From the NCBI GenBank assembly GCA_000004695.1, contig CM000150.2:4064001-4128000 (forward strand): a stretch of 64,000 nucleotides of DNA, written 5' to 3'. Positions 28,038-61,346 of this stretch are shown piece by piece. This DNA comes from Dictyostelium discoideum (taxonomy: Eukaryota). Below the pieces are notes generated by a model. It saw only the letters and a program-made list of their open reading frames with translations. It was not told the origin of the DNA and did not search any database. The translations under genes were made by a program, and so were the position numbers. The stretch's first letter is position 1; every line of letters begins with the position of its first letter.

Positions 28038-28099
28038 AATAAAAATAAAAATAATAATAATAATATCTTTACCATTATCATTTGTATTTGATTTTAAAT

Positions 28100-53609: not shown

Positions 53610-54817
53610 TTTATTGGCTAATATGTTCTAATTTTTTTTATTATTTTTATTATTTTTTTTTTTTATTACTTAAACACTATTTTAATTTTATTATTTATTA
53701 TTATTTATTATAATTTTTTTTTTTTTTTTTTTTAATAATAATCATAAATTTTAAAAAATTGAATTAAAAAAAAAAAAAAAAAAGTAAAAAGTAATTATAA
53801 AAAAATTTTATAAGAAAAAAAAAAAAAAAGTATAAATACAAAAAAATTATAAAAATAAAAAAAAATAAAATTAAAAAAAAAATTTTTTATGACGTTGATC
53901 TCAGATTAATTATTTTTTTTTTTATTTTTATTTTTAATTTTATTTTTATTTTTATTTTTATTTTTTTTTTTTTTACACAGCTGCGTTACTGAGTGATATA
54001 TTTTTTCAAAAGATTTTTAATTATTCTTCAGACTTTTATTTCGCCATTTTAACCCAAATTAATTAGTGGCACTGGCATTTATGGAAATTAAGAAAAAATT
54101 ATGATCCAGGATGTGTTTAAACTGGGAATTTTTTTTTTTAATTATTTTTTTTTTTTTAAATTTCTTTCGGCAATTTAAAAAAAAAAAAAAATCTTTTAAA
54201 ATGTCAAAAAAATAAATTAATTAATTAAGAATTCTTATATTTCATCAAAAAAAAAAAACCATAATGAACAAATATAACCGTTAGGTGGCTTATGAGATTT
54301 ACATAATCATTAGGTCATTAATATTTTTTTTTTTTTTTTATTTTTTTTTTAAAACAAATATAAAAGAATTAATTATTTATTCTGAATTTTTTTATTCTTT
54401 CTTCTAGAATTTTAAAAAAAAAAAAAAAATATCCATTATTTATTATAAAATAATAAATTGTTTTTTTTTTTTTTTTTGTTTTGATAAATTAAATGTTTTA
54501 AAAGTTGATTTTTATGCCTCTATTAAATTTTAATGGTTTTTTTTTTTTTTTTTTTCAACTAAACTATTCATTCTAACAATGGACAATTAATTAAAAAAAA
54601 AAAAAAAATAATTAAAAATATTTTTTAATTTTTGTGTTTTTGCTATTCTATCTAGTAAATAATTGTTTTTTTTTTAGATGGAAATTTTTGAAAAATATAG
54701 GATTTTCACCAAAGGAAATATTTATATATTTTTTTAATTACCTCATCTCAATTTAGGATGTGAACTAGTTTTATTTAATTTATTTTATAAATGATTTTTT
54801 TGTATCTGAATTTATTA

Positions 54818-54833
54818 AAAAAATTTAAAATCC
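54818..54833. repeat. Target-site duplication (3'-side copy): aaaaaatttaaaatcc
   Basis: Identical to 61176..61191. It is directly followed by the element's terminal T-run (poly(A) on the element strand). Confidence 0.8.
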
Positions 54834-54930
54834 TTTTTTTTTTTTTTGAATTGGATAACGCAATTATTATTTGCTTCTCCTTGAGATGCTAGATCTCATT
54901 TTATTTTTTTTTTTTTTTTACAGGGTCTTT

Positions 54931-55164
54931 TTGATTAAAACATCTTTTTTGTCCAAACTTTTTTCTAAATCTTTTTTTATTTTATCGTCTGGTTCGTGAT
55001 TGATGTTTATGACGTATTTGAATTGTTTTTTTTTTTTTTTAATTGAGTTTTATCCACAATTTCGCTTATTTTTTGTAGGCATTTGTGTTGCTTAATATTT
55101 GTGGTGTTGTTTGTGATTTTCATTTTATTTTCTTTCTATCTTTTTTATTTTTCTGATTAACTTG

Positions 55165-55170
<6 letters not shown>
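54931..55170. repeat. 3' copy of the TRE5 B-module, including the first ~65 codons of ORF1; direct repeat of 59801..60060
   Basis: About 230 bp is nearly identical between 54931..55170 and 59801..60060. Each copy abuts a T-run. The 5' copy has a roughly 30-bp insertion before aattaacttgggtt. Confidence 0.85.
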
Positions 55171-55219
<49 letters not shown>

Positions 55220-55223
<4 letters not shown>

Positions 55224-58200
55224 TTATAGAAAGTACTGAGTGAATTATTGTTTTTTTTGAGATGTTTAGGAAGTTCTATTGCGTGAAGAGGTGAGTTCCA
55301 TTGTCTGCTAAATTGTAATAGCTTTAGCGAGATTAGTGAGTCTAATTTATTTTGTTCTTCTGGCCGTTGCTTTGATTTGATTCTTAATGTTTTGTTTATA
55401 ACCGCTTGTGTCCTGTCCCATGCAGCTCTTTGTGTTTTAATTAGTTCACGTATGACTTGTTGTCTGTGAATTATTATTTCTTTTTCATCGTGAATGAGTT
55501 TATTTCTTTTGTGCCAGATTTTATCGAATATAATAGCTATTAAATTGGCTACTAGTGCAATTTGTAGATGGTTTAAAATCTTCACATTCCAGGTGTGAGT
55601 GGTGTGTCCACACTTAGTTAGGGTGTAGTTGAAGATTTCTTGTGTGTTTTTGATGTGGGCTTTGCAGTTGAAGAATATATGTTCTGAGGTCTCATCTTCC
55701 CCACACTGTTGGCATGGCATGTTGTATATTTTTGGTAGTGCTTTCAGTGTGTATCTCCATAATAGATCTCTACCTTTCATGTTTATTATTTTTTTGATTT
55801 CTTTAAATGGAAGGTGTTTGCTATTAATTTTGGTCATTATTTCTTTTTGGCCAGGAGTTGGTATGAATTTGTTGTGTTCAGGAGATTGAGTTGTCATCAT
55901 ATCTTCGTATATTTTTTTTAATTTTGGGAGGTGTTCGTAGTGTGTTTGTTTATTTTGTGGAGTTTTTAATTGGGTCCATGCTTGCTTGCATTGCCAGTGT
56001 AGTTGTAGTTGATTTTGTTTTGTTGTTGTTTTGTTGTTGTTGTTGTTTTTGAGTTCCTCTTCCCACAGTTTTATATATGAACTAGGAGTGTTACTTACTC
56101 TTTGGTGGAGGTATCTTTCGAATAACCATGCTTTCTGTGCTAGTTCTCTTGTCTTCAGGTTCCATAAGTTTAGGCCACCATTGATATAGTTGTTTTGTCT
56201 TCTTTGTAGTGAAAGAGAGTTTTTAGATTTTGTGTTGAAAACGAATTTTACGATGTTATTTTCAATACTATTGTGTTGTGGTGTGGTGTTGATGTAAGTG
56301 TGGAACGTTAACTGAGATAGTGCATATGTTTTTGCCATTATGAGTCTGCCCATATAGGTTGATGAAGTTGAGTTCCATGTTACTAGTTTAGCTCTGATGT
56401 TGTCTGAGATTGTATTGATTTTGGATTTGATACCCTTATTGTTGAAGTCAAAGCCGAGGTACCTTTCGTTTGATTTTATGACGGTGTATAGCGTTCTGGT
56501 GTTCCATTTGAAAGTGATACACGAGCATTTGGTTTGGTTTATTTTTGCGCTGGTTGCTTGGCAAAACTTCTTGATCCATTCATTCATGAGGAAATGGTCC
56601 ATAAAGTTGTATGCTATTGTTGCTGTATCATCGGCGAACTGTAGTATTTTAATGGTTTCTTTGGTTACACCATTGATGCAGCGGTCATTTATTATAGTAG
56701 TTGCCATGCATTCAACCACTAATGCGAAGATAGTGGGAGAGATAGGATCACCTTGTTTGGTTCCTCTTTTTGATGTAAAGCTTTTAGATAATGAGTTATT
56801 GATGTACACTGATGTTTCTGATTCATTGAGTAAGTTCATTATTGTGAGGACCATTTTGAGTGGTAGTTTTAGATGTGCAAGAGTACGTAGAATGGCGTTA
56901 TGTGAGATTGAATCGAATGCTTTTTCAAAATCATAAAATGTTATGATTGGTTCCATATCCTCTTTTGTGTTAATCTCTCGTTTTATTATTTCTATTGTTG
57001 AGTTTAAGGTGATGATGTTATCGTGCAGTAGTCTTCTTGGTACGAATCCAGTTTGGAATGGTGAGATTATTTTGTTTAAGAACTTCAGGATCCTATTGTT
57101 GATTATTTTCGAATAGATTTTGTAATCGACATTTAGAAGTGTTATTGGTCTATAATTATCCAGGTTGTTTGGGTCTCCTTTGTTTTTATATATAGTAATC
57201 AATATCCCTTGTTTGAAGTCCTTTGGGATTGTTGTGTTCCAGAAGTGATTGTATAGTTTTGATATTATTGGTAGAATTTCATTAATGTGGTTTTTGTAAA
57301 ATGTTGGAAGGAGTCCATCTTTACCAGGTGCTTTTCCTTCTTGTATTTTTTCAATGCCTAGTCTGATTTCATATCCTTCTATTGGTTGATTAATTTCGTC
57401 CAATATCTTTTGATCAATCCTTTTATTGAATGTTTTTAGGAGTTCGTGGTGAGTGTCTTCGTTGCATTCTCTCTTCTGGTACAGGTTCTCGTAATATCTT
57501 CTTGCTACTTCGAGGATATCCTCGTGTTTTGTTACCAAACAATTGTTGCTTGGATCTAGAATTTGAGGGATTTCATTTGTCTTTCTTTGGACTTTTAACC
57601 TTCTGGTTAAGTATTTTGATGGTGTTTCTTTGTTGTTGATGTGGGTGTTGGTTTGGTTTGCTTGTTTTATTCTTACTTGTTCCTTTAGAATATTGTTGAT
57701 CTCTTCTTTAAGGAAGATTGCTCTTGAATCTTTGGCTGTTTCGAGTTTTTCTGCGAGTTCTTTTAGTTTGTTTTTGGTTTTATTGCTTTCTCTAATTTCT
57801 ATATTAATTGACAGTTTCTTTATTTCATCTTTTAGTTTCAACCATTGTTCGCAAATGTTTAATTTGTACCATTTGCTGGTGTTCTCTTCGAATTTTTTAT
57901 TGTAGTATTTAATTGTTTTATTAATTTTGAGGCTGGTTGAATTCATTTTGAGAGTTTCTAGGTTTTGTCTCCATAGTCTTTCTCCTTTCTTTTGTTGCTC
58001 GTATTCTGGTATTTTTAATTCAATGATTACCATGTTGTGATCAGATTTTAATTTGATTTCCTTAGTAGTAACTATTGGGTTTAGATGGAGTATCTTCTTT
58101 GAGACAAAGACCCTATCGATGGTTGATTTGTTTCTTGGAAATGTGATTCCATTCTTAATTTCTGTAAATTCGAATTCGTCGAAGATTGTTTTAATATATT

Positions 58201-58441
58201 TGTTAAGGTTATTATCCACTGAACAGTCTACATTGAAGTCTCCAGTTATAATATCGCTGTGTAGTATTTCTTCTGTGAGATTTTCCTTATACCATTCATG
58301 TCTTTCGTTTGACTTTGCTGGGGCATAAATGGTTGTGCATTTGATCTGTGTTTTTGCAATCATCCATTCGGAAGATATAATTCTTTCGTTTATTGTTTTT
58401 GTTGTTGTTTTTATTTGGGTGTTGATGATGATTTGTGACAC
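55220..58441 (-). CDS. Retrotransposon ORF2: APE-type endonuclease, reverse transcriptase and zinc-finger domain (1073 aa from the first Met)
   Basis: It has endonuclease motifs (GDFNVD, SDHNMV), RT motifs (YRPITLLNVDYKIYSKIINNRI, FDFEKAFDSISH, QGDPISPTIFAL, LQFADDTA) and a CQQCGEDETSEHIFFNCKAH finger. The frame may be open upstream of the Met, towards ORF1. Confidence 0.85.
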
Positions 58442-58653
58442 CCCTTGTCCTGTTTTATCAATTGGTGCGTGGTGTGTTATTTTGTTTTTATATTGTTGAT
58501 TTATTGAGTAAATTTTATTTGTTTTTATATTTGTTTCAGTTAGAAGTGCTGCGTCCAGCTTGTTGTTGTCTAAAACGGTGTTTATTATGCTGGCAGATTG
58601 GATGGTGTTGGATCCTTGGACGTTCCAAACACCTATTCTTATTGTGTTTTTCT

Positions 58654-59988
58654 TTATAGTTTTATTTGGGGTAGATTTTTATCTACCTTTTGAAGTTTCT
58701 GGTTTATTTTGTCTTCTAACTGATCTTTACTTTGTTCGTTGTGTTGTTGGTCTTGTGTGTTTGTGGGGTTTTTTGATTTATTGATTTGTTTTAGAATTTC
58801 CTTGTTGAAGTTGTCTATATCTTCATCCATTTTTGTTTTTATGCTTTTTTGTCCATATTCACCCAATTTTGGTTTGACTGGTGTTTTGTTGGTCTTGTTT
58901 GTTTTGTCTTGTTGTTTCTTTTTTGGTGTGTTTAACAATTTACTTGGTGAATCGATAATTTTCGATGGTGTACCATAGGTTGGGCTGAAACTCATGATAT
59001 GTTTTATTGGAGAGGAGAAGAACCATTGATTTGAAGGGATTGAAAGTGGGAATTCTATTTTTCTTATTGCATCAGTGTTTGGGCTGGTGAAGTCGAAGAT
59101 ATCATTTGCCTCTCTAAGTTTTTCTTCCGTTGTTAGTCCCTTTGTTTCGCCGTGTTGTTTTATTGGTGTATTGTATGGAGATGGTGGTTCGATAGGTTTT
59201 TCTGATTTTGTTTTAATTTCTTGATTGTTTATCGATTGTGTATTGATCTCATTCTCTATTCTTGTTAGTTCATCTACGTTTTCTAGTGATGCTTCTATTA
59301 CCTTTTGAGCTGTATCATCTAGGGCCATAAATGTTTTATCATTAGATGAGGATGTGATTGGTGGGATAATGATTGTTCTTTTTCCTTGTTTTGGTATTTG
59401 TTCTGATGTAAATTGTGGTTGTTGTTCATCTGATTGTTTTTTATTTTTGTTTTCTTCTTGATTTTCTGGTAATGAGGTTTGATCTCTCCATCCTTTGTTG
59501 GAGTGTCCAATTAATGTTAAATTGTCTAGTTCAATGATAGTGTCAAATTCTTCTACGACTCTTTTCACTGTTTTGATAATTAGAGTTTCGCCTTTAATTT
59601 CTGATTTAATTAGTTTACATCCTTCATTTTCTATTACCCATTCTATTTCTGTGAGTGATTTATACCAATCAAAATCTGTATACATATTTTTTGGTCTTAT
59701 AGTGGTTATAAATTGTCCTTTTAATTCTGCATCAAACATATTTACAAAATAGATTACTGTACTAATACTGTCTGTGAGAATTTTGAATGTATTATTACTT
59801 TTGATTAAAACATCTTTTTTGTCCAAACTTTTTTCTAAATCTTTTTTTATTTTATCGTCTGGTTCGTGATTGATGTTTATGACGTATTTGAATTGTTTTT
59901 TTTTTAATTGAGTTTTATCCACAATTTCGCTTATTTTTTGTAGGCATTTGTGTTGCTTAATATTTGTGGTGTTGTTTGTGATTTTCAT
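58654..59988 (-). CDS. Retrotransposon ORF1 (444 aa), basic and K/Q-rich
   Basis: ORF immediately 5' of ORF2 on the same strand. Its ATG lies inside the B-module. Confidence 0.75.
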   Translation of the reverse strand: MKITNNTTNIKQHKCLQKISEIVDKTQLKKKQFKYVININHEPDDKIKKDLEKSLDKKDVLIKSNNTFKILTDSISTVIYFVNMFDAELKGQFITTIRPKNMYTDFDWYKSLTEIEWVIENEGCKLIKSEIKGETLIIKTVKRVVEEFDTIIELDNLTLIGHSNKGWRDQTSLPENQEENKNKKQSDEQQPQFTSEQIPKQGKRTIIIPPITSSSNDKTFMALDDTAQKVIEASLENVDELTRIENEINTQSINNQEIKTKSEKPIEPPSPYNTPIKQHGETKGLTTEEKLREANDIFDFTSPNTDAIRKIEFPLSIPSNQWFFSSPIKHIMSFSPTYGTPSKIIDSPSKLLNTPKKKQQDKTNKTNKTPVKPKLGEYGQKSIKTKMDEDIDNFNKEILKQINKSKNPTNTQDQQHNEQSKDQLEDKINQKLQKVDKNLPQIKL

Positions 59989-60064
59989 TTTATTTTCTTT
60001 CTATCTTTTTTATTTTTCTTTAAAAAGTTAAAAATCTGGAAATTTTCTAATTAACTTGGGTTCC

Positions 60065-60107
<43 letters not shown>

Positions 60108-60110
<3 letters not shown>

Positions 60111-61175
60111 TCTTTTTTATATGAAAAATGAAATAATCAAAAAAAGAGATTGTTGTTGTTGTTTGTTTTTTTCGATCTGATTATTTTTTGCTTTTTTTTT
60201 GAAAATTTTGCTACGCAAAATTCTCAAAACGAAACAAATAATAAATTACAATAAAGTAAAAAGATGGCTTTTTAAAATAGTTTATTTATTTATTTATTTG
60301 TTTTTTAAGTCTTTTTTATATGAAAAATGAAATAATCAAAAAAAGAGATTGTTGTTGTTGTTTGTTTTTTTCGATCTGATTATTTTTTGCTTTTTTTTTG
60401 AAAATTTTGCTACGCAAAATTCTCAAAACGAAACAAATAATAAATTACAATAAAGTAAAAAGATGGCTTTTTAAAATAGTTTATTTATTTATTTATTTGT
60501 TTTTTAAGTCTTTTTTATATGAAAAATGAAATAATCAAAAAAAGAGATTGTTGTTGTTGTTTGTTTTTTTCGATCTGATTATTTTTTGCTTTTTTTTTGA
60601 AAATTTTGCTACGCAAAATTCTCAAAACGAAACAAATAATAAATTACAATAAAGTAAAAAGATGGCTTTTTAAAATAGTTTATTTATTTATTTATTTGTT
60701 TTTTAAGTCTTTTTTATATGAAAAATGAAATAATCAAAAAAAGAGATTGTTGTTGTTGTTTGTTTTTTTCGATCTGATTATTTTTTGCTTTTTTTTTGAA
60801 AATTTTGCTACGCAAAATTCTCAAAACGAAACAAATAATAAATTACAATAAAGTAAAAAGATGGCTTTTTAAAATAGTTTATTTATTTATTTATTTGTTT
60901 TTTAAGTCTTTTTTATATGAAAAATGAAATAATCAAAAAAAGAGATTGTTGTTGTTGTTTGTTTTTTTCGATCTGATTATTTTTTGCTTTTTTTTTGAAA
61001 ATTTTGCTACGCAAAATTCTCAAAACGAAACAAATAATAAATTACAATAAAGTAAAAAGATGGCTTTTTAAAATAGTTTATTTATTTATTTATTTGTTTT
61101 TTAAGTCTTTTTTATATGAAAAATGAAATAATCAAAAAAAGAGATTGTTGTTGTTGTTTGTTTTTTTCGATCTGA
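60108..61175. repeat. Tandem array of 199-bp units (5 full units plus a 73-bp partial), the A-modules of the retrotransposon 5' UTR
   Basis: Unit starts (aagtcttttttatatgaaaaatg...) are at 60108, 60307, 60506, 60705, 60904 and 61103. The period is exactly 199 bp and the copies are near-identical. The last copy is truncated at tctga (61175). Confidence 0.9.
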
Positions 61176-61191
61176 AAAAAATTTAAAATCC
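61176..61191. repeat. Target-site duplication (5'-side copy): aaaaaatttaaaatcc
   Basis: Identical 16-mer directly abutting the truncated A-module, 35 bp before the tRNA gene. Confidence 0.8.
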
Positions 61192-61225
61192 AAATTTGGT
61201 TAAAAAAATTTTTATTCTCATGTTA

Positions 61226-61298
61226 GCTCGATTAGCTCAGTCGGCAGAGCGTGGTGCTAATAACGCCACGGTCGCAGGTTCGATCCCTGCATCGAGCA
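61226..61298 (+). tRNA. tRNA-Ile (anticodon AAT), 73 nt
   Basis: GCTCGAT TA GCTC AGTCGGC AGAGC G TGGTG CTAATAA CGCCA CGGTC GCAGG TTCGATC CCTGC ATCGAGC A. The acceptor stem is 7 bp (GCTCGAT/ATCGAGC). The D-arm carries the A box (TAGCTCAGTCGG). The anticodon stem is 5 bp with loop CTAATAA, giving anticodon AAT. The T-arm is GCAGG/CCTGC with the B box GGTTCGATCC. Confidence 0.9.
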
Positions 61299-61335
61299 AA
61301 CAATTTTTTAAAAACGTAGAAATAAAATCACAGGT

Positions 61336-61346
61336 TCGATTCCCAA
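61336..61346 (+). promoter_or_regulatory. External B-box (exB) copy, GGTTCGATTCC, 38 bp downstream of the tRNA
   Basis: A second near-consensus polymerase III B-box sequence lies after the tRNA 3' end. Such extra B-boxes downstream of Dictyostelium tRNA genes are a described feature. Confidence 0.6.

Follow-up and report, generated by a model that had tools for sequence, protein, structure and literature searches.

The locus described here raises the question of whether a retrotransposon that looks complete in a reference genome is the element that actually inserted there. The analysed stretch, referred to as the window, comprises 64 kb of Dictyostelium discoideum AX4 chromosome 1 (reference sequence) and contains a TRE5-A element of 6,342 nt (6.34 kb) on the minus strand at positions 54834..61175, located just upstream of a tRNA-Ile gene. 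An earlier note on this DNA described the element as an intact copy that may be competent for retrotransposition. This claim is not supported by comparison with other copies: the backbone of the element is of the TRE5-A.2 type (at 20/20 diagnostic sites, in the indels of its 3' B-module and in a ~70-bp deletion in the BC region, i.e., the 3' B- and C-modules), the body of its second open reading frame (ORF2) is missing from the same insertion in a long-read assembly, and no mosaic was found among ~35 copies in that assembly. We consider it probable, at roughly 0.58, that a TRE5-A.2 element inserted at this site and that the ORF2 body seen in the AX4 reference is an assembly fill-in.

Composition of the element

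The published layout of TRE5-A is AB-ORF1/ORF2-BC, with a 200-bp A-module and a 290-bp B-module that is duplicated in the 3' untranslated region (UTR), and TRE5-B and TRE5-C have no 3' B-module (PMC3159450). Read on the minus strand, the window element has the order A-B-ORF1/ORF2-B-C with the 3' B-module duplicate, and it comprises the following features.

54834..54847, minus strand: terminal oligo(A)14 (T14 on the plus strand), read from the sequence; same length in the orthologous element of the AX2-type long-read assembly.
54848..54928, minus strand: C-module remnant of 81 nt, TRE5-A.2 type, with 3' stem-loops; the A.1/A.2 alignment shows the ~70-nt BC deletion.
54929..55166, minus strand: 3' B-module copy of A.2 type, 238 nt, a 97-98% direct repeat of 59799-60019; indels identical to those of the A.2 copies L010 (the ortholog) and L001.
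55167..55219, minus strand: internal A-run separating the ORF2 stop from the 3' B-module, ~55-59 A, 17 nt longer than in the AX2-type ortholog.
55220..58678, minus strand: ORF2 open frame, 1152 codons and stop, from translation, Pfam, motifs and an exact match to EAL72859.1.
55284..58417, minus strand: ORF2 body, A.1 type, 3,134 bp (+/-1 nt), absent from the orthologous element and corresponding to the canonical TRE5-A.2 deletion.
58654..59988, minus strand: ORF1, 444 aa, TRE5-A.2 type by its diagnostic states, DDB_G0271020, an exact match to EAL72860.1.
59778..60068, minus strand: 5' B-module, ~291 nt, with the ORF1 start codon at 59988; delimited by where it resembles the 3' B-module in A.1 copies (element positions ~1107-1398).
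60069..60107, minus strand: A39 run between the A-module array and the B-module, read from the sequence.
60108..61175, minus strand: A-module array (plus-strand promoter module), five identical 199-nt copies and a 73-nt partial copy; Tandem Repeats Finder gives period 199 with 99% matches.

The A-module promotes plus-strand transcription of TRE5-A, and its copies in the window have zero differences among them. The 3' B-module lacks CCTGGGAA, a 29-nt segment and its last ~20 nt. The C-module bases C38, A35, C26 and T15, counted from 54848, all lie at positions that were mutated by Siol et al. 2011 (PMC3159450), where the C-module stem-loops were found to be essential for TRE5-A retrotransposition; the 3' 87 nt are predicted to fold as RNA into two hairpins (-11.3 kcal/mol, z=-3.3). 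The layout given in the earlier note thus holds for all modules and ORFs, with the exception that the C-module is of the short TRE5-A.2 type and not the 134-137-bp A.1 version.

The assignment of the element to the TRE5-A type, which the earlier note had made, agrees with the module architecture including the 3' B-module, with the C-module hairpin positions of Siol et al. 2011 and with the identity of ORF2, which is 99.6-99.9% identical to other AX4 and AX2-type TRE5-A ORF2s and only 53-64% identical to other Dictyostelium ORF2 groups. The lack of a 3' B-module and the distinct ORF2 lineage that mark TRE5-B and TRE5-C are not seen here.

The subtype was examined by comparing the window copy with A.1 and A.2 copies from the long-read assembly. 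From the 5' B-module through ORF1 into the start of ORF2, the two subtypes show ~23 fixed differences, and at all of these the window copy is in the A.2 state (for the scored ORF1/ORF2-start sites, 20/20 are A.2 and 0/20 A.1). Its 3' UTR has every A.2-specific indel, including the ~70-nt BC deletion that leaves ~81-87 nt of C-module; the published deletion of TRE5-A.2 is 72 bp, leaving a C-module of ~87 nt (PMC3159450). In the ORF2 body, 2-5 substitutions over 3.1 kb (0.1-0.2%) separate the window copy from A.1 copies, compared to 22-23 substitutions in 1.36 kb (~1.7%) for ORF1. As proteins, ORF2 and the AX4 A.1 model P0043 differ only by N1143Y, a position outside the body, and ORF1 is one residue (S193F) away from the common A.2 ORF1 P0086 and 11 residues away from the A.1-type P0090. 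Judging from these alignments, the window copy is an A.2 backbone carrying an A.1-type ORF2 body, because the backbone is A.2 at all diagnostic sites and in its 3'-UTR indels while the ORF2 body is A.1-type, and the switches between the two fall within window positions 58574-58417 and 55283-~55220. Position 58574 carries the A.2-specific T (element strand). Accordingly, the copy has the complete ORF2 (1152 codons) of TRE5-A.1 without its full BC region or A.1-type ORF1, and it has the BC deletion of TRE5-A.2 without the large ORF2 deletion.

Two further observations concern the sequence of this copy. Three substitutions, at window positions 59411, 59520 and 55252, set the reference copy apart from every A.1 and A.2 copy in the comparison; one of the pair in ORF1 (59411, 59520) leads to S193F and the one at 55252 leads to N1143Y in ORF2. 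These substitutions may be real mutations of the AX4 lineage or errors in the reference. Moreover, P0043 (DDB_G0273345, DDB_G0281941 and others), which shares the ORF2 variant H385/G435 with the window copy, is represented only by AX4 accessions, and the exact ORF1, ORF2 (Met106 model) and P0043 sequences have no match in the contig index, which holds the AX2-type assembly and evidently not the AX4 reference. The P0043 variant could represent an AX4-specific active subfamily or a reference-specific consensus sequence.

The orthologous locus and the survey of copies

The orthologous locus was fetched by means of the flanking MFS protein from four further assemblies belonging to the project of Holland et al. 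2025 (PMC12745789), namely a Nanopore and Illumina assembly, GCA_054883475.1 (locus L010), two wild D. discoideum genomes (L011 and L012) and D. cf. discoideum (L013). The first of these is presumably the assembly of AX2-214, since it is nearly identical to AX4, shares exact proteins with it, and AX2-214 is the sole laboratory strain in the project. Its flanks at this locus differ from the window only by a few substitutions and by homopolymer lengths. The same target-site duplication (TSD) is present at both ends of the element along with the same A14 tail, and because both are identical, the two assemblies represent the same insertion event.

The orthologous element is 2.6 kb long and is a canonical TRE5-A.2: it lacks window positions 55284-58417 (3,134 bp, +/-1 nt) and has 2.37 A-modules compared to 5.37 in the window, that is, three fewer. 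Its breakpoints are those of the canonical TRE5-A.2 deletion, as in the A.2 copy L001, with a junction in which ...CAACACCC is joined directly to GCAATAG....

The long-read assembly was surveyed for TRE5-A copies, giving 35 entries with an ORF1 in 27 loci; since there is overlap between some loci, slightly fewer distinct copies are represented. An A.2-type ORF1, the A.2 deletion junction and the short BC region always occur together (14/35 entries), as do the A.1-type ORF1 and the ORF2 body in the remaining 21/35 entries, which have the long BC region wherever the C-module follows. There are no mosaic copies among the 35 entries.

The survey also revealed that A-modules form tandem arrays in the long-read assembly (L001-L010, e.g., L003:1191-3254 and L004:199-3257), ranging from ~1.4 to >15.4 copies, with exact 199-nt spacing and 0-1 differences per array. 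Without exception, the arrays terminate in the same 73-nt partial module, and an A-run follows. Our literature search for multiple A-modules in TRE5-A found none; the descriptions consulted give a single 200-bp A-module. In addition, several loci (L007:2786-13071, L008, L009, L025, L026 and L031) contain TRE5-A units arranged head to tail, with another ORF1 ~120 nt after ORF2, such that the 3' B-module of one unit is the 5' B-module of the next and neither a C- nor an A-module lies between them. This arrangement suggests unequal recombination between B-modules.

Origin of the ORF2 body

The first part of our preferred explanation is well supported: a TRE5-A element inserted 50 nt upstream of the tRNA-Ile(AAU) gene, with its 5' end toward the tRNA gene, creating a TSD of 16-17 nt. 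The inserting copy was TRE5-A.2, which is non-autonomous and is mobilised in trans by the ORF2 protein of TRE5-A.1 (PMC5391098). The 3.1-kb A.1-type ORF2 body would then not be part of the real locus, the three extra A-modules probably would not be part of it either, and the Sanger-era assembly may have threaded pooled or consensus transposon sequence through the repeat. If so, the copy would not be an autonomous element. Ax2 and Ax3/4 are independent derivatives of the NC4 clone DdB (PMC2643946), hence a real structural change would have had only decades to occur. Sanger reads could not tell near-identical transposons apart, and a perfect 1.07-kb tandem array with A-runs of 39 and ~55-59 nt is where read-based assembly fails. 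The complex repeats of the AX4 chromosomes were reportedly reconstructed in part from pooled reads.

Several considerations weigh against an assembly fill-in. The mis-assembly is inferred from the comparison of assemblies and not shown from reads, and the identification of GCA_054883475.1 as AX2-214 is itself an inference from near-identity to AX4 and the strain list in PMC12745789. The transition between A.2 and A.1 states is clean, with no jumble of mixed calls, and real recombination would equally give a clean switch. Sanger reads that span the A.2 deletion junction are expected to have existed and should have prevented a fill-in, and we found no published statement that the euchromatic TRE5-A copies of chromosome 1 were consensus-filled.

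The clean switch within homologous stretches (58574-58417 and 55283-~55220) also speaks for the possible, if doubtful, alternative that the mosaic is real. On this view, gene conversion or gap repair after the split from Ax2 would have used an ectopic TRE5-A.1 as donor and filled the deletion of the TRE5-A.2 residing in the Ax3/AX4 lineage with the 3.1-kb ORF2 body, and unequal exchange would have increased the A-modules from 2.4 to 5.4. The natural variation of A-module number from 1.4 to >15.4 in the long-read assembly would accommodate the latter step, the head-to-tail arrays that share B-modules show that such elements recombine, and both ORFs are open with the essential C-module hairpin region intact. 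On the other hand, the 3.1-kb conversion tract must spare markers only 157 nt upstream and ~65 nt downstream of it, 0 of the ~35 long-read copies are mosaic, and a rare event is required within a few decades of laboratory culture.

The two remaining explanations are both very unlikely. The insertion of an autonomous TRE5-A.1 as it stands, which was the reading of the earlier note, with subsequent loss of the ORF2 body from the AX2-type strain, would be consistent with the complete ORF1 and ORF2, the TSD and the poly(A) tail in the window. It is very improbable, being largely refuted by the diagnostic sites, where the backbone is A.2 at 20/20 positions and in every 3'-UTR indel; a later deletion in AX2 would furthermore need to recreate the canonical A.2 breakpoints exactly, and the ORF2 body is 10-fold less diverged from A.1 than ORF1 is and therefore cannot be the old full-length progenitor of the A.2 lineage. 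Nor do we give much weight to the idea that the reference is right and that the long-read assembly collapsed or mis-polished the locus to TRE5-A.2. Homopolymer and repeat lengths differ between the assemblies, so neither is free of errors; however, Nanopore reads are easily long enough to cross 6 kb, many full-length copies, tandem arrays and A-module arrays of >3 kb are resolved elsewhere in the assembly, its structural quality was validated by its authors (PMC12745789), and the A.2 backbone in the reference itself predicts a TRE5-A.2 at this site. The full-length ORF2 is thus probably an artefact of the reference assembly or at best the product of a secondary conversion event, and not a feature of the copy that inserted.

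Insertion site and empty sites

The element is flanked by a direct repeat and faces a tRNA gene, with the following features at the site.

54817..54833, no strand: TSD copy distal to the tRNA gene; 16 nt are certain (54818-54833) and 54817 is ambiguous; exact repeat of 61175/6-61191, with a single homologous copy at the empty sites L011 and L013.
61175..61191, no strand: TSD copy adjoining the tRNA gene; exact repeat, with a single homologous copy at the empty sites L011 and L013.
61226..61298, plus strand: tRNA-Ile(AAU) gene, the RNA polymerase III (Pol III) target directing the insertion; found by ARAGORN (tRNA-Ile(AAT)) and Rfam (RF00005, 64.1 bits).

The 16-mer AAAAAATTTAAAATCC has exactly two exact occurrences in the window, at 54818-54833 and 61176-61191, in agreement with the perfect 16-bp repeat at both element ends reported in the earlier note. 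A third match, at 28089 with 1 mismatch, was rejected as a chance match; across the window, ~0.4 matches would arise by chance when up to 1 mismatch is allowed. One more base can be added to each copy of the repeat, giving 17 nt (54817-54833 and 61175-61191), and since this base (54817/61175) can equally be the first base of the A-module, the TSD is 16 or 17 nt long. TSDs of de novo TRE5-A events are variable, 10-16 bp (PMC9012585), and a length of 17 nt would lie just above this range; together with the A14 tail, the perfect repeat gives the element the TSD and 3' oligo(A) typical of TRE5-A.

Between element base 61175 and position +1 (61226) of the tRNA-Ile gene there are 50 nt, the two being on opposite strands and the element's 5' end pointing toward that of the tRNA gene. 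Both orientation and spacing are canonical for TRE5-A, for which a spacing of 47+/-3 to the tRNA gene and the position and orientation criteria have been published (PMC3159450, PMC5391098), and the ARAGORN and Rfam calls at 61226-61298 support the distance of 50 bp to a tRNA-Ile(AAU) gene and the TRE5-like orientation that the earlier note had proposed. The element has a G+C content of 29.5%, compared to 23.1% for the window, and no further TRE5-A fragment is present elsewhere in the 64-kb window. The internal B box of the tRNA-Ile gene is GGTTCGATCCC at 61278-61288. A second B-box-like motif, GGTTCGATTCC, occurs at 61333-61343, 35 nt downstream of the gene, and resembles the external B box, which we take to be a feature of many Dictyostelium tRNA genes.

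L011 and L013 have one diverged copy of the target in front of the same tRNA-Ile gene and no TRE5-A; the target in L011, AAAAAAAATTTAGCAAATCG-AAATTTCGATAAAAAAATTT..., aligns with AAAAAAATTTAAAATCC-AAATTTGGTTAAAAAAATTT... in the window. L012 likewise has no TRE5-A at the same tRNA-Ile gene. Because the target is single-copy at both sites that could be read through (L011 and L013) and all three wild genomes lack TRE5-A, the flanking repeat is a true target-site duplication made by the insertion. This bears out the target-site duplication proposed in the earlier note, which had asked for a check that the 16-mer is single at the orthologous empty site in other strains, and the alternative that the 16-mer is a pre-existing local duplication is rejected by the one homologous target copy in L011 and L013. 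It is also well supported that the insertion arose in the lineage leading to the NC4-derived laboratory strains, because it is common to AX4 and the AX2-type assembly and absent from the three wild genomes.

L012 has a different insertion of ~390 bp (L012:8988-9379), which ends ~10 nt upstream of the same tRNA-Ile gene and is 91% identical over 322 nt to L006:8655-8965, a segment located just past a TRE5-A 3' end. This ~390-bp insertion could represent a further tRNA-targeted element or a solo long terminal repeat (LTR).

TRE5-A inserts by target-primed reverse transcription, guided by contact of the ORF1 protein with TFIIIB at the tRNA gene. At this locus, the ORF2 endonuclease would have nicked the DNA ~50 bp upstream of the tRNA gene, the reverse transcriptase (RT) would have primed on the nick from the element RNA by recognising its C-module hairpin, and cleavage of the second strand 16-17 nt away would have given rise to the TSD. 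For an A.2 copy, the ORF2 protein would have been supplied from elsewhere.

Open reading frames and annotation

Both ORFs are open in the window (ORF1 of 444 aa and ORF2 of 1152 codons), as the earlier note had asked to be checked. ORF1 is an exact match to EAL72860.1 (DDB_G0271020), ORF2 from Met106 onward to EAL72859.1 (DDB_G0271018), and the neighbouring MFS gene to EAL72710.1 (DDB_G0270720), all on AX4 chromosome 1. Because all three match AX4 proteins exactly, the window is the AX4 reference and the element is a known one that is already annotated there.

ORF1 has no Pfam match, and the lack of a known domain match has likewise been published for TRE5-A (PMC5391098). In ORF2, the Pfam match to RVT_1 is strong (E=3e-33), and the matches to Exo_endo_phos at the N-terminus (E=4e-4, 20.6 bits vs a cut-off of 24.5) and to zf-RVT (E=0.03) are sub-threshold. 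The motifs GVWNVQG, LLTET, GDFN and SDHN of the apurinic/apyrimidinic endonuclease (APE) catalytic domain, FADD of the RT and a C-terminal CX2CX7HX4C (CCHC) finger are all present. ORF2 therefore has the domains of TRE5-A; the RT and zinc finger named in the earlier note are borne out by Pfam and by the finger motif, respectively, and its endonuclease is indicated only by the sub-threshold Pfam match and the motifs. Searching PDB sequences with the 240 N-terminal aa of ORF2 returned only noise.

ORF2 has no ATG before codon 106 (58361-58363). It opens in the -1 frame relative to ORF1, with a 25-nt overlap at the end of ORF1 (58654-58678), and by-eye inspection of this overlap showed no canonical -1 slippery heptamer. 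The AX4 and AX2 gene models start at Met106, omitting the N-terminal part of the endonuclease domain; both a predicted GTG start and the 1047-aa AX4 model truncate this domain.

Significance

TRE5-A is the best-studied retrotransposon that targets tRNA genes, and since the copy described here is already annotated, the element itself adds nothing new. Its interest lies in quality control: at least one "full-length, intact" TRE5-A of the reference is an A.2/A.1 chimera that the long-read assembly of a sister strain does not confirm, which calls for caution with counts of autonomous copies and A-module numbers derived from the reference as well as with the gene models DDB_G0271018 and DDB_G0271020. 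If the mosaic were real, it would show that recombination can rapidly mend a defective retrotransposon. Ectopic gene conversion from TRE5-A.1 would then have produced, within decades of laboratory culture, a new autonomous element whose ORF1 and 3' end are of A.2 type, and this would be direct evidence for reconversion of a non-autonomous into an autonomous element in a haploid, gene-dense genome.

Comparison with known systems

The supplement of PMC5391098 lists tRNA loci and gives no subtypes of endogenous elements. The window copy resembles TRE5-A.2 in its ORF1 states, the indels of its 3' B-module, the ~70-bp BC deletion (C-module of 81-87 nt) and its position and orientation relative to the tRNA gene, and the AX2-type assembly has a canonical A.2 as its ortholog. 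It departs from TRE5-A.2 in the 3,134-bp ORF2 body, which defines A.1 and is deleted in A.2, and in having 5.4 A-modules compared to 2.4 in the ortholog. With the autonomous TRE5-A.1 (AB-ORF1/ORF2-BC, ~5.65 kb in the reference description) it shares the full ORF2 with APE, RT and CCHC finger, the 199-nt A-module, the ~291-nt B-module with its 3' duplicate, the distance of 50 nt from the tRNA gene and the TSD. In contrast to TRE5-A.1, 11 ORF1 residues (22-23 nt) differ, the A.1-specific segments of the 3' UTR are missing, and the C-module measures 81 nt instead of 134-137 nt.

TRE5-B and TRE5-C belong to the same non-LTR clade and also insert ~50 bp upstream of tRNA genes, and TRE5-C has a related C-module (PMC3159450); unlike them, the window element has a 3' B-module, and the next ORF2 groups are only 53-64% identical. 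More distantly, the element resembles mammalian LINE-1 and other APE-type non-LTR retrotransposons in its two ORFs, in an ORF2 with APE, RT and C-terminal CCHC finger, in the poly(A) tail and variable TSDs, in target-primed reverse transcription and in the trans-mobilisation of non-autonomous partners. It differs from LINE-1 in that no similarity to L1 ORF1 is detectable in the TRE5-A ORF1 (no Pfam match), Pol III genes are the insertion targets, the UTRs consist of modules, and ORF2 overlaps ORF1 in the -1 frame with no ATG of its own.

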